Shown piece after piece: positions 32,575-57,028 of a DNA stretch of 64,000 nt. The notes below the pieces were generated by a model. That model was not told the DNA's origin. It worked only from the letters and a program-made list of their open reading frames with translations, and searched no databases. The DNA is from Ignavibacteria bacterium (lineage in GTDB: Bacteria; Bacteroidota; Ignavibacteria; Tepidaquicellales; OLB5). Location: positions 1,671 to 65,670 of the forward strand of contig JBEKSX010000001.1 of assembly GCA_049516635.1 (NCBI GenBank), in the 5' to 3' direction. Positions within the stretch are counted from its first letter, which is position 1; every line of letters starts with the position of its first letter. The position numbers were made by a program, and so were the translations under genes.

Positions 32575-34194
32575 CTATTTCGATAATATCATTTTCCTGG
32601 TTTCACTGAATGAATTATCACCGGTTGTAAGTGTATAAAAATAAACTCCACTCGAATAATCCGCTCCATTCCATTCGTATTCGTAAGTACCCGGAGGAAG
32701 CTTCTCATTTGCAAGAACTGAAAGCTCTCTTCCGAGAATATCGTACACCAGCAGCTTAACCTGCACAGGACTTCCCATGCTCTCCGGAATATCAAATCTG
32801 ATCTTAGTCGACGGGTTAAACGGATTAGGATAATTCTGAAATAAACTATACGATTTTGGAATTTCAGAAGTTATGCTTTTAACAATAAGGGGTTCTTCCA
32901 GGATAGCAGTCCATATACTAAGCTGACCGCTCTGTAGTCTTGTCCAGATAGGCCTTACACTTCCGTGCGAAACAGTTATGTTATTATAATCACCAAAGAA
33001 CACGCTGGAGGTTGGTGTGAACGGACTTGAACTTATCCTGAAATTATAGAAGCTCGCTCCTGCATTCGTCGACCTTGCTATATATACATCTGTCTCGTTA
33101 TCTGTGTAATTACGCCTGTCATAAAAGACAATGTAAATATATCCGGAAGTTTGATCAACTGTCATCCATGTGAAAAACTGTTCTTTCCCCGGAGCGTCAT
33201 CATTAACCCTAACAGGTGAGCTCCAATTGAATCCTCCGTTAGTGGATCTTATGAACTTTACATCGTGGTCACCTGTTCCTGCTTCATCACTCCAGTTTAT
33301 ATAAATATTCCCGTGATATGGTCCCGGGCTAAGATCGCAGCATGTTATAGGCATCCCGTTGCACCTGTAGATACCCGGTATGTCATAAGTCCACCCGCCC
33401 GGTTGATTGGTGACGTAAATATCATCCGGGAGCCAGGTTATTCCACCGTCAGTTGATCTATCGAAGAAAATCCCATACTGAGAATTAATTACTTTCGGAC
33501 CTGCCCACGCTACATATATCTCGCCATGCGGTCCAACGACTGGTACTGCTCCTTCAGTAGTATTATCACCATCAAGGCAATCGCCTCCGAGCCTACTAAT
33601 GCGAACCGGAGTACTCCAGTTAGCTCCGCTGTTCGATGAACGTGAAAATAGGATTCTCGAACTATCCGAAGTATTAGAACTGCCATAGCTATCGAATTCG
33701 GTCCATGTAACATAGATCCAGTTGCCCCGAGGACCATGTGACCAATCAACACCGGTCCATGCTTTATCCTGAGCTTTTGTTCCGTTCAAACCGGTATAAG
33801 TTCCTGGGTTCCCGTAATTAATTCCGCCGTTTGTTGATTTAGCACATACTATTCTATCGATCCAGTTACCCGGTGAAGGCGGATTCGCAAGGTGGAAAAA
33901 GTAGAAATTACCAGCAGTATCAACCTGCATGGAAGGGTCACCCCAAACACCGTTCTGGTTATCAACAAGGGTTCCCTTAGTCCAGTTAAAACCGCCATTC
34001 GAAGACCAGTAATATAAATCAATATTGGCACCTGCAACCAGCTGGCTGATATTTTTAGGGTTTATACTTATAGAAGGTTCTTCAGGCGCACCGACATTAT
34101 CTATCATCACATTCTGGAATGTTTGTGCAATAACAATGCCATAAAGAAAAGTGAAAAATAAAAAAGAGGAAATTAAAATGTACTTTATCTTCAT
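32575..34194 (-). CDS. BNR/Asp-box repeat beta-propeller protein with T9SS C-terminal sorting domain (tandem paralogue)
   Basis: 539 aa, colinear with the 540-aa neighbour over the full length (roughly 70 percent identical by eye, not computed). It has the same Asp-boxes and sorting domain. Confidence 0.8.
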   Translation of the reverse strand: MKIKYILISSFLFFTFLYGIVIAQTFQNVMIDNVGAPEEPSISINPKNISQLVAGANIDLYYWSSNGGFNWTKGTLVDNQNGVWGDPSMQVDTAGNFYFFHLANPPSPGNWIDRIVCAKSTNGGINYGNPGTYTGLNGTKAQDKAWTGVDWSHGPRGNWIYVTWTEFDSYGSSNTSDSSRILFSRSSNSGANWSTPVRISRLGGDCLDGDNTTEGAVPVVGPHGEIYVAWAGPKVINSQYGIFFDRSTDGGITWLPDDIYVTNQPGGWTYDIPGIYRCNGMPITCCDLSPGPYHGNIYINWSDEAGTGDHDVKFIRSTNGGFNWSSPVRVNDDAPGKEQFFTWMTVDQTSGYIYIVFYDRRNYTDNETDVYIARSTNAGASFYNFRISSSPFTPTSSVFFGDYNNITVSHGSVRPIWTRLQSGQLSIWTAILEEPLIVKSITSEIPKSYSLFQNYPNPFNPSTKIRFDIPESMGSPVQVKLLVYDILGRELSVLANEKLPPGTYEYEWNGADYSSGVYFYTLTTGDNSFSETRKMILSK

Positions 34195-42689: not shown

Positions 42690-44255
42690 TCAATTGTTAT
42701 ATCCGTTTGTCCTTAACCATTCCTTCGCATCGGAATCACCCAATGAAGCTGCTTTCTCGAAATATCCGGCTGCTGTTTCTTTGTTACCCAAATTAACGTA
42801 CGCAACACCAAGGTTAAAATAACCATATGCTGAATTCGGGTTCACTTCGACTGCTCTGTTATAATCTTTTACCGCTTTCTTATAATTTCTTTGTTCAGCA
42901 TAAATATATCCCCTGTTAACATAGGCCTTTTCATAATCAGAGTTGAGCTGTATTGCTCTGGTGTAATCGTCAATGGCATCCGCGTAAGAATACAGTTCTG
43001 TATAAGCCTTTCCTCTGTAAAAATATGCATCCGCCGAGCCTGGATCGGCACTCAGCGAAATATTCAGATTGGCAACTGCGTTTTCGTAATCCCTATGCTC
43101 AATGCAATTTATTCCTTTGTTTAGATATTCTACTGCTGAAACAGAAGGTGCTTCGGATATCTGGTTTTCCTCTTTCGGCGTTTCTTCAACTCTAGGGGTC
43201 TCTTCGACCTTTGGGGCTTCAGTTACTTCTCTCTCTTCTGCTTTTGGTGTTTCAACTTTAGGCTGCTCCTGAAGTTCTTTTATCTCTTCTTTTGGAGCTT
43301 CTTCAATTTTTGGCGCTTCAGTGACCTGTTTCTCCTCAGCTTTATTTACTTCAGTCTTTGGTTCTTCCTTCTTCGGTTCAGTTACAACATTTTTTTCTTC
43401 TACCTTTGGTGTCTCCTCAACTTTAGGAACTTCCGCTATGGGTTTTTCTTCAATCTTTGGTTGTTCCACCTGGGGCTGTTCAACAGGTTGCTTCTCTTCC
43501 ACTTTTGGGGCTTCGCTTATTGGTTTTTCTTCAACTTTAGGTTGTTCTACTTTCGGAGCTTCTGTTACCGGTTTTTCTTCAACCTTTGGTTGTTCTACTT
43601 TAGGGATCTCTGTTACCGGTTTTTCTTCAACCTTTGGTTGTTCCACTTTAGGCTGTTCCTCGATTTTAGGTGCTTCAGTAATCTGATTATCCTCTGACTT
43701 CGTTGTCAAGCCTGCATCGACAAATTCTTTTGCGGACAGACGATCTTTTGCAAGGCCATAGTTAGGATTGATATCTATAGCTTTTGAAAAATCATTGAAT
43801 GAATTTTTATAATCCTTTAGAGCGAAATACGCATTACCGCGGTCATAGTAGAATTCCGAGTTTTGAGGTTCCATACCGAGAGCAGAAGTATAATCACTTA
43901 CAGCTTTGGCATATTCCCTGTTATCGTAATACGAAAGCCCGCGGTTCACGAAACCTCTCGTTGTCTTCGGTTCAAGAATAATGACTCTGGTAAAATCGCT
44001 TATGGCTTTGTTGTAGATTTTAATCTTTCTGTACAGGGTACCCCTATTGAAATATGCATCTATATAATTATAATCGATCCCCAGGGCCATTGAATAATAT
44101 ATTATCGCTTCATCATAATTATTTGCCTTTTCGGATTCGAGAGCTGAATTAAAAAATTTCACAGCTTCCCTGTCCTGTGCCTGGGTCCGAAAGGAAGATG
44201 ATAATAAAATGAACAAAAAAATAAAAAAAGAAGTATATTTAACTATTGCTTTCAT
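42690..44255 (-). CDS. TPR-repeat protein with central Pro/Glu/Lys/Val-rich tandem-repeat spacer
   Basis: 521 aa. A signal peptide is followed by four or five TPR units (AIIYYSMALGIDYNYIDAYFNRG...), about 180 aa of EQPKVEEKPVTEAPKV-type repeats, and three or four more TPR units. Confidence 0.8.
   Translation of the reverse strand: MKAIVKYTSFFIFLFILLSSSFRTQAQDREAVKFFNSALESEKANNYDEAIIYYSMALGIDYNYIDAYFNRGTLYRKIKIYNKAISDFTRVIILEPKTTRGFVNRGLSYYDNREYAKAVSDYTSALGMEPQNSEFYYDRGNAYFALKDYKNSFNDFSKAIDINPNYGLAKDRLSAKEFVDAGLTTKSEDNQITEAPKIEEQPKVEQPKVEEKPVTEIPKVEQPKVEEKPVTEAPKVEQPKVEEKPISEAPKVEEKQPVEQPQVEQPKIEEKPIAEVPKVEETPKVEEKNVVTEPKKEEPKTEVNKAEEKQVTEAPKIEEAPKEEIKELQEQPKVETPKAEEREVTEAPKVEETPRVEETPKEENQISEAPSVSAVEYLNKGINCIEHRDYENAVANLNISLSADPGSADAYFYRGKAYTELYSYADAIDDYTRAIQLNSDYEKAYVNRGYIYAEQRNYKKAVKDYNRAVEVNPNSAYGYFNLGVAYVNLGNKETAAGYFEKAASLGDSDAKEWLRTNGYNN
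43522..43665 (-). repeat. Three near-identical 48-bp in-frame tandem repeats (core of a longer degenerate array, about 43140-43690)
   Basis: Copies of ggtttttcttcaacctttggttgttctactttagggatctctgttacc start at 43522, 43570 and 43618. Each encodes a 16-aa unit. Confidence 0.85.
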
Positions 44256-44828: not shown

Positions 44829-45368
44829 TTAATGCACGCACAAATTATAATTATGTGTCTTTTCCAAACAGCTTTTACAATAAATATTCCCTTTTATATC
44901 AATTTCTTCTATTTCAAGCGAGGCATGCATCACACAGTCCCAGTCAATGCAATGTATAAGCCCAAAATTATGTCCAAGTTCATGCAGTACCTCTTTCATT
45001 GAACGTTGGTACAGCAATTCATCATCCGAACGCCCGGAATAGAATTCTTCATGCAGCCGGCAAATAGAGACTATGCAGTGTTTACCCCCGAGCTGCGCTT
45101 CACCGTAAATAAAAGTAAGCACCGGGACAAACAGGTCATGTTCGGTAAGGAGGATGATCTTTCCATCATAATCCGATGTTCGGTTCATTGCCTGTGAGAT
45201 AATCTGTGTTGAGTAGTACTGTCTCCGTTCTGCAGAGTAAGCAGATTCTATATCTAGATTCAGATCTACGATTTTAACCGATATGTGGAAAATATCAGAA
45301 AGACCATTACGAATCTTTTGGATCAGTGTTGTATTGGAAAATTTAACCGGGACAAGATAGAGGTTCAT
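44829..45368 (-). CDS. amzA: Archaemetzincin-like zinc metalloprotease (M54 family)
   Basis: 179 aa. HELGHNFGLIHCIDWDCVMH-x15-CKSC matches the archaemetzincin signature HExxHxxGx3Cx4CxM...CxxC, with spacing one residue shorter than the published X17. The start ATG overlaps the upstream stop (ATAATG). Confidence 0.8.
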   Translation of the reverse strand: MNLYLVPVKFSNTTLIQKIRNGLSDIFHISVKIVDLNLDIESAYSAERRQYYSTQIISQAMNRTSDYDGKIILLTEHDLFVPVLTFIYGEAQLGGKHCIVSICRLHEEFYSGRSDDELLYQRSMKEVLHELGHNFGLIHCIDWDCVMHASLEIEEIDIKGNIYCKSCLEKTHNYNLCVH

Positions 45369-46717
45369 TATTGGGAATTTTTTCGGAACCCGTATTTATT
45401 GATCTTGTTATATAAAGTAACCCTGTCGATCTGGAGCAATTCAGCACTCCTCGAGATATTCCATTCATTTTCCACGAGTATCTTATATATATGCTTTTTC
45501 TCCATTGCAGAGAGACTTTTATCGGAATCATCGTCTGTGATCTGGCTTACGCTGAACGGAAGATCTTCGAACTTTATTGTATCCGATTTACCTATCACGA
45601 CTGCTCGTTCAATGGCATTCTCAAGCTCACGCACATTACCGGGCCAGGAATAATTAAGCATGAAATTCATAGCTTCGGGGGAAATGCTCTTTATGTTCTT
45701 GTTCATTGCAGAAGTGAGCTTGTTAAGGAAATAATAAGCAAGCACCGAAATGTCCTCTTTACGTTCTCTCAAGGGTGGAATAAATATTGTAAATACATTC
45801 AGACGATAGAATAGATCTTCACGGAACTTCCCTTCTTTTACAAGCTCTTCTAAAGATTCGTTCGTAGCAGCAATCACCCTGAAATCGCTCGAAATGAGTT
45901 CGTTGCCTCCTACCCGGTTAAACTTCTTCGTTTCAATGACACGAAGCAATTCTATCTGTACCTTTTGAGATACTGAGCCTATCTCATCCAGAAATATGGT
46001 ACCGCCCTGTGCCATCTCGAACTTACCCTTTCTTTTGTACTGTGCCCCTGTGAAAGCCCCTTTTTCATGCCCGAAGAGCTCGCTTTCCAGCAAAGATTCT
46101 GCAAGAGCTCCGCAGTTGACAACAACTATCGGGAAATATCTTCTTTTGCTGTTTATGTGTATTGCTTTAGCTATTAACTCTTTCCCGGTGCCGCTTTCTC
46201 CCCGGATCATTACGGTCGTATCAGTAGGTGCTACTGTATTTATCAGGTCGAATATCTTTTTCATCTGTTTGCTTTCACCGGCAAGATTATCAGGCATTAT
46301 GAGTTCTTTAATCTTTGATTTTAGCTGTACATTCTCGCTCCTCAACTCTCTCTGTTCAAGTGCCTTTTTAACAAGGTGATTCAATTCATCAGGATCGACA
46401 GGTTTTGTAACATAATCAAATGCCCCGTCTTTTAGTGCCTTTATGGCAGATGAAACTGATGCGAAAGCAGTGATCAATATGACAATACTGTCCTTATCGA
46501 TCTCCTTAATTTTAACCAGGAGGTCTAATCCGTTCATACCCGGCATTTTCATATCAACGAGCAGGAGATCATATTTATCTTTGGTAAATTTCTTCAATGC
46601 CGTTTCAGCATCCTCAGCTGTATCAACGTGGTATCCTTCTTCTTCAAACCAATGAAAAAGAGAATCCCTTACGATTTTTTCGTCATCAACTATTAATATA
46701 CTTGCTCTTGAATTCAT
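45368..46717 (-). CDS. Sigma-54-dependent response regulator (NtrC family: receiver, AAA+ and HTH domains)
   Basis: 449 aa. It has a receiver (ILIVDDE...DLLLVDMKMPGMNG), an AAA+ domain (GESGTGKE, GAFTGA loop as EKGAFTGA, FREDLFYRL) and a C-terminal Fis-type HTH. Confidence 0.9.
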   Translation of the reverse strand: MNSRASILIVDDEKIVRDSLFHWFEEEGYHVDTAEDAETALKKFTKDKYDLLLVDMKMPGMNGLDLLVKIKEIDKDSIVILITAFASVSSAIKALKDGAFDYVTKPVDPDELNHLVKKALEQRELRSENVQLKSKIKELIMPDNLAGESKQMKKIFDLINTVAPTDTTVMIRGESGTGKELIAKAIHINSKRRYFPIVVVNCGALAESLLESELFGHEKGAFTGAQYKRKGKFEMAQGGTIFLDEIGSVSQKVQIELLRVIETKKFNRVGGNELISSDFRVIAATNESLEELVKEGKFREDLFYRLNVFTIFIPPLRERKEDISVLAYYFLNKLTSAMNKNIKSISPEAMNFMLNYSWPGNVRELENAIERAVVIGKSDTIKFEDLPFSVSQITDDDSDKSLSAMEKKHIYKILVENEWNISRSAELLQIDRVTLYNKINKYGFRKNSQ

Positions 46718-46723
46718 ATTTAT

Positions 46724-48316
46724 TCACTTGTTGTTTAAATTTATGGGTAAAGTAATTTTGAAAGTTGTACCTTGCTGCGAGGTTTCTTCTACTTCCACAT
46801 GTCCGTTATGCAGGCTGATAATTCCATAAACAACAGATAGCCCGAGTCCCGTTCCTTTAGCAGCTTCTTTTGTTGAGTAGAAAGGCTCGAAGATATGAGA
46901 TAGATCTTTTTCAGGTATGCCGAAACCCTCATCTTTTATACGAATTACAGCAAGATTATTCTCATGCTTTACATCAATGATAATCTGACCTCCATTCGGC
47001 ATAGATTCTATCGCATTGATCAACAATGACATTAAAGCCTGCTGTATCTTCTGGGAATTACAGTAGATTTCAATCTTTTCAAGGGGGTAATATTTTGTAA
47101 GTTTTACATTATTTATTTCAAGATGATGGTTAATTAGAGTAATGCTTTTATCAATTATCTGGGAGAGATCCGATTTAGTAAACTCATCCGTATCTCTATG
47201 AGAAAAGAGGAGGAGATCCTTAACGATCTTACCACACCGGGCAGACTCCTCGGCGATTAGGGTCAAAAATTCGATGATTTTTGTATAATCTTTGCCATCC
47301 TCAGAAGCTTTGAGTTTTTTTTGTATCAATTTACTGTATGTGAGTATACCTTCGAGCGGATTATTAAGTTCATGAGCTACCGTTGCCGATAACTTACCAA
47401 GAGATGCAAGACGCTCTATCTGAACCACCTGGTCGTAAATGTTTTTGAGCTCTTCTGTCTTTTGCTCCACCTTTACATTAAGATTTTCAGACCAATCCTT
47501 AATCTCTTTGTATGCCGTATCAAGTTTTCGAGACATGTCATTGAATTGCCTGGCGATTATACCCAGTTCATCTCTCGATTTTAATGGAATCCTATAGCTA
47601 AGGTTCCCTTTACCCACTTCCTCAATTCCTTTGGAAAGCTTTTTTAAAGGTTTGTTCACGAGCAAGAGGATAAATACACCACTGAACAGAGATATGAAAA
47701 CTGTAATAATAACAGAATTCAGGATCACCGTTTTTCGATTAGAGGATATAGTTTCATCTGCCTTCTTCATCGAAATCATTACATCGAGGACTCCCAGCAT
47801 TTCTAGATTCTTTTGATGAGCGTGACAGTCGGAATTGTAACAATCAGGTTCATTCTTTATGGGATTAATCAAACCCAGCACTCTTTCTTCTTTAGAAGCA
47901 TAAAAGAATCGCATTCGTTCATTTGCCGATATATAGCTAGATACCCCACTTTTCCCATGGCAAGCTATGCATGCCTCTGCCTTCATATCAACTGTTTTAT
48001 TTATTTCCGAAGAATCTGTCGAAAAAATAATGGTTCCCATTTTATTATATATCCTGATACCCTTCACACCGGGTTCATCGCCAATTGTCCTTATTATCTG
48101 GTAAACATCATTCCTTTTATTGAGAAGCATACTATATCGTGTTGAACGCTTAATTATATCACTGATATTATAAGCATTTTGCTGGTATAATTTAGTGATG
48201 TCATTTTCAAGGTAATAGATGGTAATATAGGTATGCAAGGAAAATATTGCTATCAGTATAAGAGAAGTTACAAGCAGCAGCTTAACGCTTAGTTTATTAA
48301 ATAATTTCACTTTCAT
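46724..48316 (-). CDS. Sensor histidine kinase with periplasmic domain carrying c-type heme-binding motifs, HAMP, HisKA and HATPase
   Basis: 530 aa with two TM helices bracketing ~150 aa that contain CIACH (CxxCH) and CYNSDCH (Cx4CH). HAMP follows, then H-box SATVAHELNNPL, N-box LINAIESM, and G-boxes DEGFGI and GTGLGLS. Confidence 0.85.
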   Translation of the reverse strand: MKVKLFNKLSVKLLLVTSLILIAIFSLHTYITIYYLENDITKLYQQNAYNISDIIKRSTRYSMLLNKRNDVYQIIRTIGDEPGVKGIRIYNKMGTIIFSTDSSEINKTVDMKAEACIACHGKSGVSSYISANERMRFFYASKEERVLGLINPIKNEPDCYNSDCHAHQKNLEMLGVLDVMISMKKADETISSNRKTVILNSVIITVFISLFSGVFILLLVNKPLKKLSKGIEEVGKGNLSYRIPLKSRDELGIIARQFNDMSRKLDTAYKEIKDWSENLNVKVEQKTEELKNIYDQVVQIERLASLGKLSATVAHELNNPLEGILTYSKLIQKKLKASEDGKDYTKIIEFLTLIAEESARCGKIVKDLLLFSHRDTDEFTKSDLSQIIDKSITLINHHLEINNVKLTKYYPLEKIEIYCNSQKIQQALMSLLINAIESMPNGGQIIIDVKHENNLAVIRIKDEGFGIPEKDLSHIFEPFYSTKEAAKGTGLGLSVVYGIISLHNGHVEVEETSQQGTTFKITLPINLNNK

Positions 48317-48373: not shown

Positions 48374-48409
48374 TATAAAAAAACGCAGTCTCATTATTGA
48401 ACTGCGTTT
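48374..48409 (-). terminator. Rho-independent terminator between the GcvH-like gene pair and the kinase operon
   Basis: On the minus strand, aaacgcagt-tcaataatgag-actgcgttt is followed by TTTTTTT. Confidence 0.8.
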
Positions 48410-48471: not shown

Positions 48472-49209
48472 CTATTTTTTAAAAAAACTATTAATAAGAC
48501 AGGAATAGTTCTTCTTACCGATTGCTTCATATAAATATCTTACATTCTTACCCCCATCCATTATGGTTACTCCTGTTTCAGGATAAGTTGTAAGATAATT
48601 ATGCAAAGTATCTTCCATATTGGATAAATTGATCTCATATTCCGTTTCGCTGTAAGATGCATTCAAAATATCTTCGCGGTCAGCTTCAATCAGACCAAAC
48701 CATTCATTCGTTAAAAAGTCAAAAGAATCAAACTCAGATTTGTTAAGAAAGAGAAAAGTTATAGGAGAAGCAATATCGACCGAACCCCACTCTCCCTGGA
48801 TCTTAAGAAAAGATACACCGCGTTGGACATACCGGTCTCCATTTGTAAGGAAACGAACCGAATTTTGACAGTCAATCAGAATCAACACAGCAGGATTAAT
48901 GCCTATATAGAAAATATTCCCAAATAGATTTTTTACGATAAGGTTATTTTTTAAATAATAGTATGGAGGCCTGCGGTACTTAACATCATTCTTCAGCTTT
49001 TGTATTATTTTTTTGAAGAAGTCCGCATTCGGTGAATCATATTGTCCCTCGCCCTGCTTTATGCTCGCCTGGTTTCTCATAACCTGGTCAAATTCGCAAT
49101 TTTCACAGTCGAAATCTTTATCACAAAGCTTGTACTCAACCAGATTAGATGACATCCAGATACATTTCAGGTCATCGAATTTCTTATATGGTAGATCCTG
49201 TACGCTCAT
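48472..49209 (-). CDS. Hypothetical protein: N-terminal Cys4 motif plus diverged GcvH-like (H-protein fold) domain
   Basis: 245 aa. The Cys motif is C16-x12-C29-x5-C35-x2-C38 (KCIWMSSNLVEYKLCDKDFDCENCEFD). The core FYIGINPAVL...VQRGVSFLKIQGEWGSVDIASPI resembles the neighbouring GcvH-like protein. It shares the C-terminal GVTIMDGGKNV motif. Confidence 0.6.
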   Translation of the reverse strand: MSVQDLPYKKFDDLKCIWMSSNLVEYKLCDKDFDCENCEFDQVMRNQASIKQGEGQYDSPNADFFKKIIQKLKNDVKYRRPPYYYLKNNLIVKNLFGNIFYIGINPAVLILIDCQNSVRFLTNGDRYVQRGVSFLKIQGEWGSVDIASPITFLFLNKSEFDSFDFLTNEWFGLIEADREDILNASYSETEYEINLSNMEDTLHNYLTTYPETGVTIMDGGKNVRYLYEAIGKKNYSCLINSFFKK

Positions 49210-49246
49210 ACTATGTTATTGATACCTGTATTAAATTACAAAAATA

Positions 49247-49927
49247 TCAAAATGATAAAAATTCTTCTTCAAATTGCTTCATCCCCTCATCATCGATCTT
49301 TGCAAGAGCTCCCTGTATAACATTACCGCCGTCATACATAGTTACACCGACGGGTTCAGCCCTGAATGCATTCTCGCTTAAAAAATCCTTTAATCTTTTG
49401 AACTCATCTTTCATCCAGTTAATAGCAATATGGCTCTTCTTCAATGTATTTAAGTTATCTTCCATATTGATAGGAGCTATTACCAGACCCCAGTCTTCAT
49501 ACGGGTCGTTCAAAGCTTTGCCGATTATATTTTGATTTACCGATCTTACAATCCCAAAGACAGGAGAACGGAATTTTACAAATTTAGAATCAAATTTACC
49601 TTCAAGTATAATATCTCCTTGTTTAACAAATCTGTTTTCCGGGACGATCTTTTCTATGGAAATCTTTCCTAAAGCTTTAAGCACAAAATCGTCTACTCCG
49701 ATCTTCAACAACCCGTTTTCAAATATCTTTGCCCAGGTATGACCTTTATAAAAGTAATATCCTTCAGGCGCTAATATGCTCTTTTTAGTAAATACGGGGG
49801 CAGTAGAAGCCAAAGGTGATCTTGAATACTTTTCAGTTGCCGCTTTACTAGCTTTTCTATGCTTTATTACAAGAATATCTCCAATAATAAATAGTACTGC
49901 TGTAATTAAGACTAATAATGCTATCAT
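49247..49927 (-). CDS. Membrane-anchored GcvH-like (glycine cleavage H-protein fold) protein without the canonical lipoylation box
   Basis: 226 aa. An N-terminal TM helix is followed by YKGHTWAKI..G.LKIGVDDFVLKALGKI...VKQGD...FRSPVFGIVRSVNQNI...LNDPYEDWGLVIAP, which tracks the H-protein pattern. ESVKA is replaced by EGKFDSKFVKF. Confidence 0.65.
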   Translation of the reverse strand: MIALLVLITAVLFIIGDILVIKHRKASKAATEKYSRSPLASTAPVFTKKSILAPEGYYFYKGHTWAKIFENGLLKIGVDDFVLKALGKISIEKIVPENRFVKQGDIILEGKFDSKFVKFRSPVFGIVRSVNQNIIGKALNDPYEDWGLVIAPINMEDNLNTLKKSHIAINWMKDEFKRLKDFLSENAFRAEPVGVTMYDGGNVIQGALAKIDDEGMKQFEEEFLSF

Positions 49928-50376
49928 GATAAATCTCCTTTAAATTATGGTTTACATATATTTATAGCTCAAATCTTGTTCCAAACTTACTGTAATATAA
50001 TCATTCTTAAACATCTGTTATTCTTATATTTATATTTAACTTAATAAGCATTTGTATTTCTTAAGATGTATGATGTTTAATATTTTTACATATTTATTTG
50101 TGTAATTGCATATTATTGACTTCAATACCATTTGAAATTAATGTCATTGATGAATTTTTATACATAATACTGTTGAATAATTTTACACATATATAGGATA
50201 TTAAATGATTTCTTTTAAAATCTTTGTAGAATTTAAAGGTTTAACCAACTACACAAGTAAATTTGGTTTAATTACTATGTTTTTCACATTACTGATATAT
50301 TTATCCTATGAATCAAAAGACATTATTTATTAAATTTGATTTTACTGAATAATATTTCGTTACTGTAAATATTCGA

Positions 50377-51892: not shown

Positions 51893-52099
51893 TTAATCCA
51901 GAATTATGACCTGGTTTTTTCTAGGCACGTAATATACACTCATTCCCCTTACATTATTAATTCTTCTCGGGGTCATATTGAATTGTCCGCTTTGATTAAG
52001 AAATTTTTCCAGAGCATTATTTTTCTTTGAACGAACATTCTTGAGCGGTTTCTCTCTTTTCATCTGTTCATCGGTAAGATATTGCATATCTTGAAACAT
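51893..52099 (-). CDS. Hypothetical small basic protein
   Basis: 68-aa ORF in an AT-rich spacer with no recognisable motif. Coding status is unproven. Confidence 0.35.
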   Translation of the reverse strand: MFQDMQYLTDEQMKREKPLKNVRSKKNNALEKFLNQSGQFNMTPRRINNVRGMSVYYVPRKNQVIILD

Positions 52100-52129: not shown

Positions 52130-52378
52130 TTATTTATTTAAGTTTAAAATCGAATTATCTTCTGACTTAGAATTATCTGCATTTCTGAATCCATGAAATC
52201 CGGGATTAAATTTAAAATTTTTTCTTAACAATACTTTATATCCGGTGTTATCGTTACTGATACAACCTTCCGGTTTATAAGACCATGTAAAATCAACAGG
52301 AATGTCTTCTGTAGTAATAATAAATGAACTTTTTTTAGATGGTTTCTCTATAATCATTAGGATTTCTCTTTTTTTCAC
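52130..52378 (-). CDS. Hypothetical small protein
   Basis: 82-aa ORF 30 nt upstream of the 68-aa ORF on the same strand, with no recognisable motif. Confidence 0.4.
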   Translation of the reverse strand: MKKREILMIIEKPSKKSSFIITTEDIPVDFTWSYKPEGCISNDNTGYKVLLRKNFKFNPGFHGFRNADNSKSEDNSILNLNK

Positions 52379-52618
52379 TTTCTTAATAAAGATAGCAATA
52401 TTTATGCCAAATCTAATAAATCTAAGGGGAGATGAATAATTATTTAACTCGTTGATATTCAGAAGAATATTACAAAATAATTAGGATTTTGAGCCCTTTC
52501 TAAAAGTCAAGAGTGTTAATTGTAGTGAAATTGGACAGTCTGAAGGTAAAATGTGGACACGAAAAGTTATGATTCATAACTAACAGAATAACAGTAACCG
52601 TATATAGAAAATATTTTA

Positions 52619-55600
52619 TTACTCGAATATAATTGTGAATAAAGTACCCTTTGGTCGGGTTATCTGGATTGAACCTCTAATCTGCTCAACTAAAGTAGAG
52701 ATGAGCTTCAATCCGAACGTACGGGATTCTGTGATATTGATTTTATCAGGAATACCAATTCCATCGTCTTTGACTTCGAGGGTGTATTTGTTTTGCTTAA
52801 GTGTTAACCTGATAAGAATCATTCCTTTCTTACGTCCTTTAAAGGCGTGTTTATATGAATTCGTTACAAGCTCATTAATAATAAGTCCACATGGTATGGC
52901 ATTATCGATGGACATAAAAATGTCCTTGGCTTCAAGGTTGACCTCAACAGCCGGTTTGCTTGTTCCGAAAGACTGCATGATGTAGGCAATTAGTGTTCTT
53001 AGATATTCATCGAAATTTATTTTACCCAGATTCTTCGATTGATACAGTTTCTGGTGTATGAGAGCCATAGATTGTACACGGTTTTGACTTTCTTTGAACA
53101 ATTCCAGTGCTCGTTTATCTTTTACATAGGTTGATTGTAGCTTCAGCAGGCTCGTGATTATCTGAAGATTATTTTTTACCCTGTGATGAATTTCTTTAAG
53201 AAGCACCTCTTTTTCAAGAAGCGATTGTTTTATTTCATCTTCGGATTTCTTCAGCTCGGTAATATCACGTCCCACTGACTGGTATCCAATAATTTTTTTA
53301 TTCTCATCGAATAAAGCCCTATCGGTCCATCTTTGCCATCTTATCTCTTTATCAGGCATCACCATCCTATGTTCGATAGTGGCAACAGGGTTTTGAAAAT
53401 TAAGAGATTTAAAATGTTTTTCGAACTTTTGATACTCTTCTTCGGGAATGGTGATATAAAACTTAGTCCCTATCAATTCGTTCTTAGATTTTTTGAAATA
53501 CCTGCTATAAGCATCATTCACATAAGTCAGAGTGCCATCCGGCATCCATCGGTAGATCATTTCCGTTTGGTCCTCAACTATGGCGCGGTATCTTGCTTCA
53601 CTTTCACGAAGAGCTTCTTCAATTACTTTGCGTTCTGTTATATCTATAGCAGTTCCGAGTACTGCCGGTTTACCATTATAAATTACCTGCGCTGATGAAT
53701 AATCCACCCATTTTTCGGTTCCCTCTTTTGTTAAAATCTTCATTTCATATCTTACCGGTTCTTTCTTACCGAGCAGTTTATTGAGCCCTCTTTGTTTTGC
53801 GACATCCTTAAAATCGGGATGCGTAAATTCCCAAAAATTCTCACCTACTATTTCATCAACTTTGTATCCTGTAAGAATTTCAGCATACGGATTAGCATAC
53901 ACGAATCTTTCATCTTGAAAGATGACTATTTCCGCGGGCATACATTCAGCCACAACACGAAATTTTTCTTCACTTAGTTTGATGAGATCCTCAGCATTTT
54001 TAACTTCAGTTACATCCAGTACGAGACTTAAAATTGCTTTTTGATTCTCGTATTCTATAAGCACTGATGATATTTGTGCCCACCTTTCTTTACCTGACCT
54101 GGAAATTATTATAAAATCATAGACAGGATCTACATATTCTCCTTTCATCTGTGTTATGATTCTTTCTTTTATAACTTTCTTGTAATCGGGACGAACCAAA
54201 TCAAGAAAGTTCATCTTAAAGAGATCTTTCGCTTCATAACCGAATATGTGCTCAAAGTACGGATTCACATACACAATTCTTTCTCCTTTTGTAATTACAA
54301 TTGATGCCTGTATTGCTTCCGTAACAGCACGGAATTTCAGCTCACTTTGCTTTAATGCTTCTTCAGCAGCCTTACGCTCACTGATATCAATGCATATCTG
54401 GATAACTGCATGTGTGTTTCCGAAAGAATCAAATTCCGCATACAAATAAGTATCAAGCCAGACAACTTTTTTATTTCGGTTAATAATTCTGTAATCTATT
54501 CTCTTGACCCCTTTAAAGTTCTCTTTCCTCCACTGGTTATAGAATGAAAACACTCTTTCCCTATCTTCAGGATAAATCATATCAATAAGCTCGGTATCGG
54601 ACAGGGCATTGAATTCATCTTTAGTATATCCCGATTGCCGTGTGAATTCATCATTAACAAATTCGTAAGTACTGTCTTTCACTAACAAACGTGTTACAGC
54701 TAAAGGAGAGTTCTCAGCAAGTTTTCTATATTTCTCCTCACTTAATTGTAGTATATCACGTGACTTTTTTTGTTCTGTAATATCGAGGCCATTTCCGAGG
54801 ACAGCCGGTTTTCCATTCAATTCGAACAAAGTAACAGTAAAATCAAGCCATTTCTCTTCACCGCTCTTTGTCATTATTTTGGCTTCATATCTATTAATAA
54901 CTTTTTCCCCGCGGATTCTGGCGAGCCCCCGGCTCTTCAATATCTCCTTGAAATCTGGGTGGACTACGTCCCAGAATTTCATTTTTTTCACTTCATCGAG
55001 TGTATATCCCGTTAATTCTAGCGCGTACTCATTCCCATAAAGAAATTTTTCATTCTGAAAGATGTATATCGCGGCAGGGCTAATATCACAAACTGCCCTA
55101 AACTTTGCTTCGCTTAAGCGGACTGCTTCTTCGTATCGCTTTTGTTCGGTGATATCTATGTATAGCTGGTTAATTGCAACCGGATTTCCATTTGTATCCA
55201 GATCTGCATAATGATATGTATCAAGCCATAGTTGTTCGCCGAATTTATTAAATGCCCTGTAAATGATGTGATTTATTTCTTTAAATCCATCTTTCACCCA
55301 TGTATTATATATATTTGTTAAATTATCAAGATCATCCGGATGTATAAGCTCGTTCAGCTGATCTATGGATAGCTGATTAAATTCATCAAGGGTATACCCG
55401 GACTGTCTAATAAACTCATCATTTACAATTTCATACCTTTTGGTTTTTATTGATAATCTCGTTATAGCAATGGGAGCATTATGTGTTAGCTTTCGATATT
55501 TTTCTTCGCTATCCCGCAAAGAGAGATCAGCTTTCTTTCGTTCAGTAATATCACGCATTATTGCAAGTATTTCATCTTCACCGCTAACGACCAGACGGGT

Positions 55601-57028
55601 TTCAAAGCAAGTATCTTCTCCATTTTTTGAAATTGTAAATTCGAATGTTTGTGTTTCACCGGTCTTAAACGCTGCCGTAATATTTTTCTTCAGAGTTAAA
55701 GCAAATTCCGAAGGGAGCACATCATCAATTTTTTTATTTAGAAAATCCTGAGGTAAAAAGAAAAGGTCACTGATATTTTTTGCCTTACAATCTAAAAAAG
55801 TTCCTTCACTGTTGAATTGGAACATAATATCAGGTATAGTATTTATCAGTATAGTATTCCTGCGTTCGCTTTTCAACAGCTGTTCTTCAGCCTGTTTTTG
55901 CTGTGTAATATCCTGTGTAAATGCAATAACCCCTACTATTTGCCCTTTTTCATTTCGGTAAGGAATTTTATCGGTTTTAATCCATAAACTCTCACCCTTA
56001 TCCGTTTTGATCCTATCTACTATACCAAATTTGGGAATTCCTGTGCTTATTACTTCCCGGTCTTCTTCCAGGAACTTGGCTGCCTCATCAGGATAAAACT
56101 CCTCGGTATATTTACCCTCCATTTCTTCAACAGTACATCCTTTTATTTTTGCTGCAAGTTTATTCACTCTGAGAATCCTGTTGTTATCATCTTTATATGT
56201 AATCATTGCAGGCACGGTATCCAGTATTAATCTATACTCCTCTTGCTGTTTTCTTATTATCTGTTCTGCCCTTTTCTGTTCGGTAATATCGGTCATGATG
56301 CTTTCCAGGGCTATAGGCAGGTTTTTATCATTTGTTATGAGAACATTTCTTTGGTTTATCCACTTAATATCCCCATTTTTATGAATAATCTGATATTCAT
56401 ATATAGGCTGAACATCCCCTTCCAGTAGCCGGGACCATTGCACATCAAAATAGTGCCGCCAATCAGGATGTATGATATCCTTTAATAATAGAGGTTTATG
56501 ATAGAATTCTTCAGGACCATAACCTGTAATTTCTAAAGAAGCTTTATTCACGTATTCATAATGACCATCGGCTAGAGATATTCTATTAATCATATCCCGT
56601 GCATTTTCTGCAAGCCTGAAATAACGTTTTTCGCTCTCCTCTAACTTCTTTTCAGCATCAAATTTATATAGTGCCATTCTTATAGTGGCTTTCAGGTCTC
56701 TATCTTGAAATGGTTTAAGAATAAAACCATAGGGTTTAGTGGTTTTTGTTCTGTTCAGCGTATCATCATCTTCGTGCGCTGTTAGATAGACTACGGGTAT
56801 TTGATATAGATCTAATATCTTTTTTGCTGCTTCTATTCCATCAATATCTCCCTTCAAAAGTATGTCCATTAATATTAGATCGGGTTTGTATTCACCTGCT
56901 AATTTTATAGCTTCTTCTCCGGTTTCCACTATGTCAGAAGTTTCATATCCTAAACCTATGAGAGTCCTTTTAATATCAAATGCAATGATACTCTCATCTT
57001 CGACGATCATTATTTTTACCTTTGGCAA
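52619..57028 (-). CDS. Hybrid signalling protein: N-terminal receiver, about nine PAS domains, and a HisKA_2-type histidine kinase core
   Basis: 1469 aa. It has a receiver (IMIVEDE...DLILMDILL..DIDG), repeated PAS/PAC units each ending in DIT[EQ][QR]K, a HisKA_2 H-box EIHHRVKNNLQII, and HATPase motifs (NELVTNSYKHAF, DDGIGIP). Confidence 0.9.
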   Translation of the reverse strand: MPKVKIMIVEDESIIAFDIKRTLIGLGYETSDIVETGEEAIKLAGEYKPDLILMDILLKGDIDGIEAAKKILDLYQIPVVYLTAHEDDDTLNRTKTTKPYGFILKPFQDRDLKATIRMALYKFDAEKKLEESEKRYFRLAENARDMINRISLADGHYEYVNKASLEITGYGPEEFYHKPLLLKDIIHPDWRHYFDVQWSRLLEGDVQPIYEYQIIHKNGDIKWINQRNVLITNDKNLPIALESIMTDITEQKRAEQIIRKQQEEYRLILDTVPAMITYKDDNNRILRVNKLAAKIKGCTVEEMEGKYTEEFYPDEAAKFLEEDREVISTGIPKFGIVDRIKTDKGESLWIKTDKIPYRNEKGQIVGVIAFTQDITQQKQAEEQLLKSERRNTILINTIPDIMFQFNSEGTFLDCKAKNISDLFFLPQDFLNKKIDDVLPSEFALTLKKNITAAFKTGETQTFEFTISKNGEDTCFETRLVVSGEDEILAIMRDITERKKADLSLRDSEEKYRKLTHNAPIAITRLSIKTKRYEIVNDEFIRQSGYTLDEFNQLSIDQLNELIHPDDLDNLTNIYNTWVKDGFKEINHIIYRAFNKFGEQLWLDTYHYADLDTNGNPVAINQLYIDITEQKRYEEAVRLSEAKFRAVCDISPAAIYIFQNEKFLYGNEYALELTGYTLDEVKKMKFWDVVHPDFKEILKSRGLARIRGEKVINRYEAKIMTKSGEEKWLDFTVTLFELNGKPAVLGNGLDITEQKKSRDILQLSEEKYRKLAENSPLAVTRLLVKDSTYEFVNDEFTRQSGYTKDEFNALSDTELIDMIYPEDRERVFSFYNQWRKENFKGVKRIDYRIINRNKKVVWLDTYLYAEFDSFGNTHAVIQICIDISERKAAEEALKQSELKFRAVTEAIQASIVITKGERIVYVNPYFEHIFGYEAKDLFKMNFLDLVRPDYKKVIKERIITQMKGEYVDPVYDFIIISRSGKERWAQISSVLIEYENQKAILSLVLDVTEVKNAEDLIKLSEEKFRVVAECMPAEIVIFQDERFVYANPYAEILTGYKVDEIVGENFWEFTHPDFKDVAKQRGLNKLLGKKEPVRYEMKILTKEGTEKWVDYSSAQVIYNGKPAVLGTAIDITERKVIEEALRESEARYRAIVEDQTEMIYRWMPDGTLTYVNDAYSRYFKKSKNELIGTKFYITIPEEEYQKFEKHFKSLNFQNPVATIEHRMVMPDKEIRWQRWTDRALFDENKKIIGYQSVGRDITELKKSEDEIKQSLLEKEVLLKEIHHRVKNNLQIITSLLKLQSTYVKDKRALELFKESQNRVQSMALIHQKLYQSKNLGKINFDEYLRTLIAYIMQSFGTSKPAVEVNLEAKDIFMSIDNAIPCGLIINELVTNSYKHAFKGRKKGMILIRLTLKQNKYTLEVKDDGIGIPDKINITESRTFGLKLISTLVEQIRGSIQITRPKGTLFTIIFE

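Follow-up and report, generated by a model that had tools for sequence, protein, structure and literature searches.

The H-protein of the glycine cleavage system, GcvH (PF01597), adopts a barrel-sandwich hybrid fold, and paralogs of it serve in redox contexts unrelated to glycine, as exemplified by LbpA of the sHdr sulfur-oxidation system and by GcvH-L of Streptococcus. Both LbpA and GcvH-L keep the lipoyl-lysine and are encoded together with lipoate ligases or SirTM/macrodomain genes. Here, we analyzed a stretch of 64,000 nucleotides from an Ignavibacteria bacterium (GenBank assembly GCA_049516635.1, contig JBEKSX010000001.1, positions 1,671 to 65,670; hereafter the window), in which an earlier reading of the sequence alone (the original prediction) had pointed out two adjacent minus-strand genes for proteins with an H-protein-like core. 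Both genes are present: A (49247-49927, 226 amino acids (aa)) and B (48472-49209, 245 aa), separated by 37 bp. They share with GcvH its fold, an N-terminal (K/G)H(T/E)W and a C-terminal PY..W signature. Unlike GcvH, they lack the lipoyl-lysine and have no gcvT or gcvP nearby; A adds a transmembrane helix, B adds a four-cysteine (Cys4) module, and both add an extension of ~70 aa with a TMxDGG motif. From LbpA and GcvH-L they differ by the missing lysine and by their conserved partners, which are a sensor kinase, a sigma-54 activator and an archaemetzincin (peptidase M54). We propose, with our confidence evenly divided for and against, that A and B are a non-lipoylated H-protein-fold pair that forms the sigma-54 output of a gene set comprising a haem-motif kinase, its activator and the archaemetzincin, in which the H-fold would serve as an interaction scaffold and the DGG loop would act at the protease.

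The H-protein fold of A is apparent at the level of sequence, profile and structure. A scored 28.3 bits against Pfam GCV_H (cut-off 22.2) over residues 58-166, and a profile of 26 A-family members retrieved the solved GcvH structures in the PDB with an E-value of 7e-17. Its AlphaFold model, with a predicted local distance difference test score (pLDDT) of 81.9, matched GcvH structures in Foldseek at TM-scores of 0.82-0.86, and the residues H63, W65, T196, D199, G200 and G201 are invariant among its homologs. B itself had no match in Pfam, NCBIfam or the PDB sequences, and its assignment comes only from structure, from profile-profile comparison with hhalign and from distant relatives: its model (pLDDT 75.6, poor for residues 1-60) gave a Foldseek TM-score of ~0.75 to GcvH, and distant members of the B family match GCV_H with E-values of 1e-13 to 1e-30. 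GcvH-L (PDB 5A35) was a structural match for both models. The two proteins find each other weakly by BLASTP (E = 0.016), and at the profile-profile level with a probability of 97.8% (E = 8e-13), the alignment spanning both the core and the C-terminal extension. As the profile, structure and profile-profile matches agree, A and B are true paralogs on an H-protein core, and the original prediction was correct in this respect. Homologs (46 for A, 53 close ones for B) come mostly from Ignavibacteria, and B is 100% identical to one protein of an Ignavibacteria metagenome-assembled genome.

In their domain order, the two proteins run in parallel. A begins with the transmembrane helix and the stretch KHRKASK, followed by the GcvH-fold domain, a helix, the loop VTMYDGG and C-terminal helices. 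B begins with the Cys4 module, followed by a diverged GcvH-fold domain, a helix, the loop VTIMDGG and C-terminal helices. Judging from the positive-inside rule, the soluble part of A is probably cytoplasmic because KHRKASK succeeds the N-terminal helix, and the same probably holds for B and the archaemetzincin because neither has a signal peptide or a transmembrane segment.

The position that carries lipoate in canonical H-proteins has been lost in both families. In a HMMER alignment to the Thermus GcvH, the lipoyl-lysine column holds a serine in A, with a lysine one residue away that is not conserved across the A family. In B, the hairpin tip is formed by Trp141-Gly142, which is invariant in the family, and the lipoylation position is occupied by His, Asp or Phe in distant B relatives (sequences read by eye). 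Neither family alignment contains a conserved Lys or Cys at the hairpin tip, and no Cys is conserved in the B family outside the N-terminal module. Against the NCBIfam GcvH equivalogs TIGR00527 and NF002270, A scored 15.0 and 26.9 bits (cut-offs 115.85 and 117), and B gave no match. A Pfam scan of the 45 window open reading frames (ORFs) of at least 100 aa found no gcvT, gcvP, lipoate or 2-oxoacid dehydrogenase genes; gcvT/gcvP and lipoylation genes were likewise missing from the gene tables of the related loci examined. Lipoate ligase/synthase and sHdr genes, as well as Hdr, DsrE/TusA and LplA domains, were absent from the window and from the related loci with listed genes. The original prediction had noted the missing E-S-V-K-A box and the lack of a glycine-cleavage context, and both observations stand. 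Its further suggestion of a swinging-arm acyl or sulfur carrier is not supported, and we rejected a lipoyl or acyl carrier role on the grounds that the hairpin has no conserved Lys or Cys. With no lipoyl-lysine, equivalog scores far under the cut-offs and no lipoylation or glycine-cleavage genes, the sequences do not support a canonical swinging-arm role. Public annotation calls these proteins either 'hypothetical' or 'glycine cleavage system protein H', and the latter name misleads, since canonical carriage of lipoate is impossible for them.

Both proteins are distinguished by elements outside the H-protein core. The Cys4 site of B that had been proposed as a metal site (C16-x12-C29-x5-C35-x2-C38) is invariant in 30-37 homologs, and distant relatives of B carry one to four tandem copies of the module. 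The shared C-terminal extension consists of a long helix, a (V/G)-T-M-x-D-G-G loop and two further helices. Its TMxDGG motif, which the original prediction had described as common to both proteins, is the best-conserved element of both families, and the loop has low pLDDT in both AlphaFold models. In 25 of the 80 Ignavibacteria loci described below, an ORF of 86 aa directly upstream of A encodes a transmembrane helix, a linker, 'ETMYDGG' and an acidic tail; the window has no such small ORF. Neither the Cys4 module nor the small DGG protein matched a Pfam family. Because this small membrane protein carries the DGG loop without an H-protein domain, the loop seems to be functional by itself.

Loci that encode the small protein (related loci are given as L numbers) include L011, L020, L025, L054, L055, L061, L065, L068-L070, L077, L083, L088 and L089, among others. 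In the example at L020:7042-7302 (plus strand), the helix and linker are followed by 'ETMYDGG(K)' and an acidic, Ser-rich tail, with no H-protein domain. Two to four tandem Cys4 copies occur in P0184, P0199, P0211, P0237 and P0240 and at the loci L091-L093, L113, L127, L136, L140, L156, L165 and L173. Genes for such multi-Cys4 B proteins adjoin genes for RseC/MucC, CxxCxxCC-domain proteins, NuoE/NuoF-GltD and molybdopterin enzymes.

Downstream of B on the minus strand lie the three signalling genes that had been named in the original prediction. The first encodes a sensor histidine kinase (46724-48316; HAMP, HisKA and HATPase domains in Pfam) whose periplasmic domain contains the motifs CIACH and CYNSDCH. 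It is followed by a sigma-54-dependent response regulator (45368-46717) with a receiver, an AAA+ sigma-54 interaction domain and a Fis-type helix-turn-helix (Pfam, NCBIfam), and by the archaemetzincin (44829-45368), whose start overlaps the stop codon of the activator gene by 1 nt. To follow this arrangement across genomes, we combined look-ups of the encoding contigs with a scan of species genomes (319 genomes matched), which gave 80 Ignavibacteria-type loci whose genes were labelled with profiles and phmmer. A metagenome scan with an alignment of distant B proteins provided the distant set, for which counts refer to 42 loci of at least 6 kb. The kinase, the activator and M54 are present in 78, 74 and 67 of the 80 Ignavibacteria loci, next to A (75), an iron-sulfur (FeS) protein (75) and an NrfD-type membrane protein (78), and the commonest order is A-FeS-NrfD-B-kinase-activator-M54. 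Among the 42 distant loci, the kinase and the activator are each found in 36 and M54 in 33, and A, FeS or NrfD in only 16-17; here, the commonest layout is kinase-activator-M54-B. As the distant loci mostly keep the three signalling genes but not A, FeS and NrfD, the conserved core consists of B and the signalling genes, and A-FeS-NrfD forms an accessory set. The link of the pair to kinase, activator and M54 that had been surmised from one locus is thus conserved in ~160 loci from several phyla, including relatives that are only ~25% identical.

A search with the B profile returned 904 clusters at 50% identity. The distant B family reaches into Aminicenantes, Acidobacteriota, Marinimicrobia and others, where 'glycine cleavage system protein H' is the only annotation that its members carry. 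In these relatives, B also precedes NuoEF/formate-dehydrogenase-like genes, and its further neighbors encode NuoE-like proteins, NuoF/GltD fusions, molybdopterin (formate-dehydrogenase-like) enzymes, RseC/MucC and CxxCxxCC-domain proteins. A Sec-exported tetrahaem cytochrome follows B in only ~10 of 85 loci and was rejected as a core member for this reason. Together with the FeS/NrfD quinone module, these neighbors bear out the association with redox functions that had been suggested for the pair. Contigs binned as Syntrophomonadaceae and Bacillota, L014 and L030, contain an Ignavibacteria-type locus including the tetrahaem cytochrome, and mis-binning is likely.

The FeS and NrfD genes that lie between A and B in relatives resemble those of known quinone-linked oxidoreductases. 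The FeS protein scored best against HmcB and HybA (251 and 210 bits) and the NrfD protein against HmcC and HybB (268 and 266 bits), all under the equivalog cut-offs. The FeS protein is of the 4x[4Fe-4S] type with FdnH as its best solved match, and NrfD had no match among the PDB sequences. Like HybA of E. coli hydrogenase 2 and HmcB of Desulfovibrio, the FeS protein of the relatives has a C-terminal anchor; unlike in the HybA-HybB and HmcB-HmcC systems, it lacks a twin-arginine translocation (Tat) signal, and neither a hydrogenase nor a large cytochrome gene lies alongside. We read 25 of the 118 distinct A/B-associated FeS sequences, and none has a Tat signal: the first Cys cluster begins 12-17 residues from the start methionine, while the C-terminal helix and its KRK tail are kept. 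Paralogs with twin-arginine signals, as opposed to the type found at L001:8679-9449, are encoded elsewhere on the same contigs at L041:5903-6823, L080:2440-3348, L086:8199-9101 and L154:4986-6038. The Tat-less and the Tat-paired group do not differ in the Lys/Arg pattern of their NrfD loops. We therefore rejected an inverted, cytoplasm-facing module, and the unchanged charge pattern argues for an FeS docking face that is still periplasmic.

In the window itself, the Pfam scan found no FeS, NrfD or cytochrome gene. The short layout A-B-kinase-activator is shared by the window, by L006 and L007 (70-78% identical) and by L008 and L009. The window pair is thus the rarer short form, reduced from a four-gene operon A-FeS-NrfD-B, which the original prediction had missed. 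At L016:9750-9917, a 56-aa remnant of the FeS gene separates A from B, and the activator gene of this locus is broken into two parts; the arrangement looks like either a deletion in progress or an assembly error. Short forms occur in several separate lineages, each with long forms as nearest neighbors. This scatter and the L016 remnant show that the short form is derived by loss. Comparison of the window with L006 gave 0.13-0.18 non-synonymous differences per site and 0.76-0.81 synonymous ones, which are saturated, and pN/pS for A and B is ~0.17-0.22 subject to this saturation. The low non-synonymous divergence next to saturated synonymous divergence indicates that A and B were maintained by selection after the loss.

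A systems-level parallel is provided by PspF-PspA and ZraSR-ZraP, in which an enhancer-binding protein likewise adjoins a sigma-54-driven gene for a non-enzymatic protein, and ZraR was the third-best NCBIfam match of the window activator among response regulators. PspA and ZraP are unrelated to A and B in sequence and fold, the M54 protease is an additional conserved component here, and feedback is putative for the present locus. In related loci, the first effector gene is preceded, at a distance of 50-120 nt, by a -24/-12 element. The pattern TGG[CAT]A[CT]-N5-TTG occurs in 46 of 59 distinct upstream regions of the distant loci, against 0.019 expected per region of 340 nt, and most Ignavibacteria loci read [CT]GGCA[CT]-N5-TTG[CGA] (read by eye). 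The window carries TGGAAC-N5-TTGA (49969-49983, minus strand) 56 nt upstream of the ATG of A, and L006 has an element at the same position that is identical except for the spacer. The operon is thus preceded by a positionally conserved -24/-12 promoter. Behind B, before the kinase gene, an intrinsic-terminator-like hairpin with a U-run (48374-48409, minus strand) folds with -13.2 kcal/mol (z = -4.1; none of 200 shuffled sequences was as stable). A consensus terminator scan missed it, presumably because its loop exceeds the length that the scan allows. From the element before A and the stable hairpin after B, A-B appears to be a sigma-54-dependent unit of its own, which ends at the terminator and is separate from the kinase operon, a point that had gone unnoticed before.

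The adjacent activator would be the obvious regulator of this unit by its position; 74 of the 80 Ignavibacteria loci and 36 of the 42 distant ones have it next to the B-family gene. The conserved promoter before the operon and the strong synteny make A-B the likely output of the adjacent two-component system. A block at 50145-50199 (minus strand) shared with L006, with three TATGT(G/A)TAAAA-like repeats, is a weak candidate for the binding or enhancer site of the activator, the comparison being a pairwise alignment of two sequences. The two kinase motifs, CxxCH and Cx4CH spaced 43 residues apart, resemble c-type haem-binding sites with putative haem attachment and are kept in 118 of the 121 Ignavibacteria orthologs and in 23 of the 44 distant ones. 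Elsewhere in the window, a perfect sigma-54-type site, TGGCATAAATATTGC (52395-52409, minus strand), lies 17 nt upstream of two small minus-strand ORFs, 52130-52378 and 51893-52099. Their products of 82 and 68 aa have no Pfam match and may be a second target of a sigma-54 activator; ORFs of similar size, by which alone they were compared, lie at the same position in L006 and L007.

The third signalling gene encodes an archaemetzincin with an intact catalytic motif. Like AmzA, the window protein carries the HExxHxxGxxHC-x4-C-x-M...CxxC signature and lies above the NCBIfam cut-off (155.3 bits against 145 for NF033823; 87.5 bits in Pfam); counted by hand, the gap to the final CxxC measures 16 residues instead of the published 17. 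HExxHxxGxxHC is intact in all 119 M54 orthologs. The presence of this protease co-varies with the DGG motif of B. Of the 120 distinct B proteins that have M54 nearby, 116 keep DG[GA]; among the four exceptions, one is cut by a contig end and one is an apparent assembly variant. For B proteins without M54, we counted only loci in which the activator gene is complete and M54 would have had space; none of these four, from three lineages, retains DG[GA], the residues being NGG in L008, EGE/EDE in L080/L085 and SGG in L154 (Fisher p = 7.5e-6, uncorrected for phylogeny). It is the DGG motif, and not the H-protein hairpin, that co-varies with the protease, which the original prediction had also overlooked. 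This pattern hints that the protease may act on the DGG loop or be controlled by it, and the loop is a likely interface with the protease. We also considered that the C-terminal Gly-Gly might be processed as in ThiS/MoaD, an idea that is speculative; the related loci with tabulated genes showed no E1-like gene.

These observations can be combined into a model. Through its two haem-c-type motifs, the kinase would sense a redox or ligand signal in the periplasm and phosphorylate the activator, which may in turn open the -24/-12 promoter before A. A and B would then share a single transcript terminating at the hairpin behind B. Both would act in the cytoplasm, A tethered by its N-terminal helix and B equipped with its putative Cys4 metal site (Fe-S or Zn), and the H-protein fold would work as an interaction scaffold rather than a cofactor arm. 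The functional element may be the exposed, low-confidence TMxDGG loop. As suggested by the co-variation, the co-encoded archaemetzincin could recognize this loop, either to cleave it or to be kept latent by it, with the Asp as a ligand of the zinc; such recognition would constitute a proteolytic control step. In most Ignavibacteria, the same operon would also deliver the Tat-less HybA/HmcB-type FeS protein and the HybB/HmcC-type NrfD subunit. The window lineage has lost both of these genes but retained A and B, which argues that the pair has a role without FeS and NrfD encoded in cis.

Several points weigh against this model. Any contact between A and B, B and M54, or B and the activator is a proposal drawn from sequences. 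The co-variation depends on three independent losses, the motif is degenerate in L123 and L145 despite the presence of M54, and A retains its DGG in L008, which has no M54; for the last reason, we regard the co-variation as suggestive but not proven. The promoter of the window deviates from the consensus (TGGAAC...TTGA), and as a lone site it is not significant, with 3 matches in the window against 2.5 expected. The Cys4 module of ~40 aa is modelled unreliably by AlphaFold (confidence below 50), and its metal could be either Fe-S or Zn. Finally, that ~75 of the 80 Ignavibacteria loci place the pair in one tight operon with FeS and NrfD would fit a structural or assembly role equally well.

This last point leads to an alternative that we take seriously while considering it unlikely, in which A and B are cytoplasmic subunits or assembly/export chaperones of the HybA/HmcB-HybB/HmcC-type quinone module, whose FeS subunit, having lost its Tat signal, may need help with assembly or co-export, and the window pair serves a paralogous module elsewhere in the genome or is a relic. 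The four genes are contiguous and tightly spaced, the FeS sequences read have no Tat signal, their paralogs elsewhere in four loci do, and the NrfD loop charges argue for a periplasmic docking face in both groups. The best solved match, FdnH, is exported by hitch-hiking on its partner. The operon itself encodes no protein with a Tat signal, which speaks against this alternative; the Tat-less subunit would nevertheless need an export route, which keeps an assembly or export factor in consideration. Such a role is difficult to reconcile with the 26 of 42 distant loci in which FeS and NrfD are wholly absent, and with the purifying selection on A and B in lineages that have lost both genes. It also leaves the near-universal link to M54 and the co-variation of the DGG motif unexplained.

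The latter objection applies equally to a second alternative, which we judge quite improbable: B would be a cytoplasmic redox sensor that uses an Fe-S cluster in its Cys4 module and feeds back on activator or kinase without the protease, much as PspA does on PspF, ZraP on ZraSR or NifL on NifA, with A and the small DGG protein as membrane-tethered versions. It draws on B being the universal, and often the sole, sigma-54-driven gene beside kinase and activator, on the tandem repetition of Cys4 and on the redox enzymes encoded nearby (NuoE/NuoF-GltD, molybdopterin enzymes, RseC and CxxCxxCC proteins). Here, the contact between B and the activator is hypothetical and the cluster type putative, and the conservation of M54 and its linkage to the Asp of DGG are not accounted for. 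That A and B are swinging-arm carriers of lipoyl, acyl or sulfur groups in the manner of GcvH or LbpA, as originally suggested, now appears highly improbable. The fold is genuine and A has a lysine one residue off the canonical site, but this lysine varies within the A family, the tip of B is an invariant Trp-Gly, distant relatives have replaced the site by His, Asp or Phe, and no cysteine beyond the N-terminal module is conserved; in addition, neither the window nor the listed related loci encode a lipoate ligase or synthase, gcvT/gcvP or an sHdr gene.

The proposed proteolytic model can be taken further. In this tentative form, which we think more probably wrong than right, the Cys4-GcvH-fold proteins, their membrane paralog and the small DGG protein would be the physiological partners of bacterial archaemetzincins, with TMxDGG being cleaved or holding the protease latent. 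Together with the haem-sensing kinase and the sigma-54 activator, they would make up a widespread four-component redox-signalling circuit that governs quinone-linked and NAD(P)H/formate-linked Fe-S oxidoreductases. The biological role and the substrates of archaemetzincins are essentially unknown, and an archaeal member was inactive on the substrates tried in standard assays (PMC3427221). If true, the partnership would for the first time give the M54 family a physiological setting and a substrate, and the gene set offers a concrete, testable candidate partner for the bacterial enzymes. We found no paper that ties archaemetzincin to sigma-54, and a 2026 paper on Thi4 names archaemetzincin only as a structural neighbor of DUF6775.

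The literature search likewise returned no paper on this gene set, on a GcvH-like protein with NrfD, or on a sigma-54 regulon with glycine cleavage H. The quinone module has been noted only as 'NrfCD' in Melioribacter roseus (PMC3534657), and the cluster goes unmentioned in the main text of the M. roseus multi-omics paper. A conserved regulatory gene set, in which the family is almost invariably linked to the same three signalling genes, thus has no description in the literature searched. The use of the H-protein fold without a cofactor is new, and the set offers a regulatory handle on a Tat-less HybA/HybB-like quinone module that is common in Ignavibacteria.

Other features of the window were recorded alongside. 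A perfect TGGCAT-N5-TTGC site (34127-34141, minus strand) lies at the 5' end of the longest ORF for a BNR-repeat protein (32575-34194) with a type IX secretion sorting tail, whose true start may lie downstream of the site. Upstream of the pair, a minus-strand gene (52619-57028) encodes a hybrid sensor of 1469 aa that combines a receiver at its N-terminus with numerous PAS-like repeats and a kinase core at its C-terminus; this protein is also present upstream of the L006 locus. Beyond the archaemetzincin gene, a tetratricopeptide repeat (TPR) protein (42690-44255, minus strand) contains a long internal stretch of low-complexity (E/Q)PKVEEKP(V/I)TE repeats between two TPR blocks.

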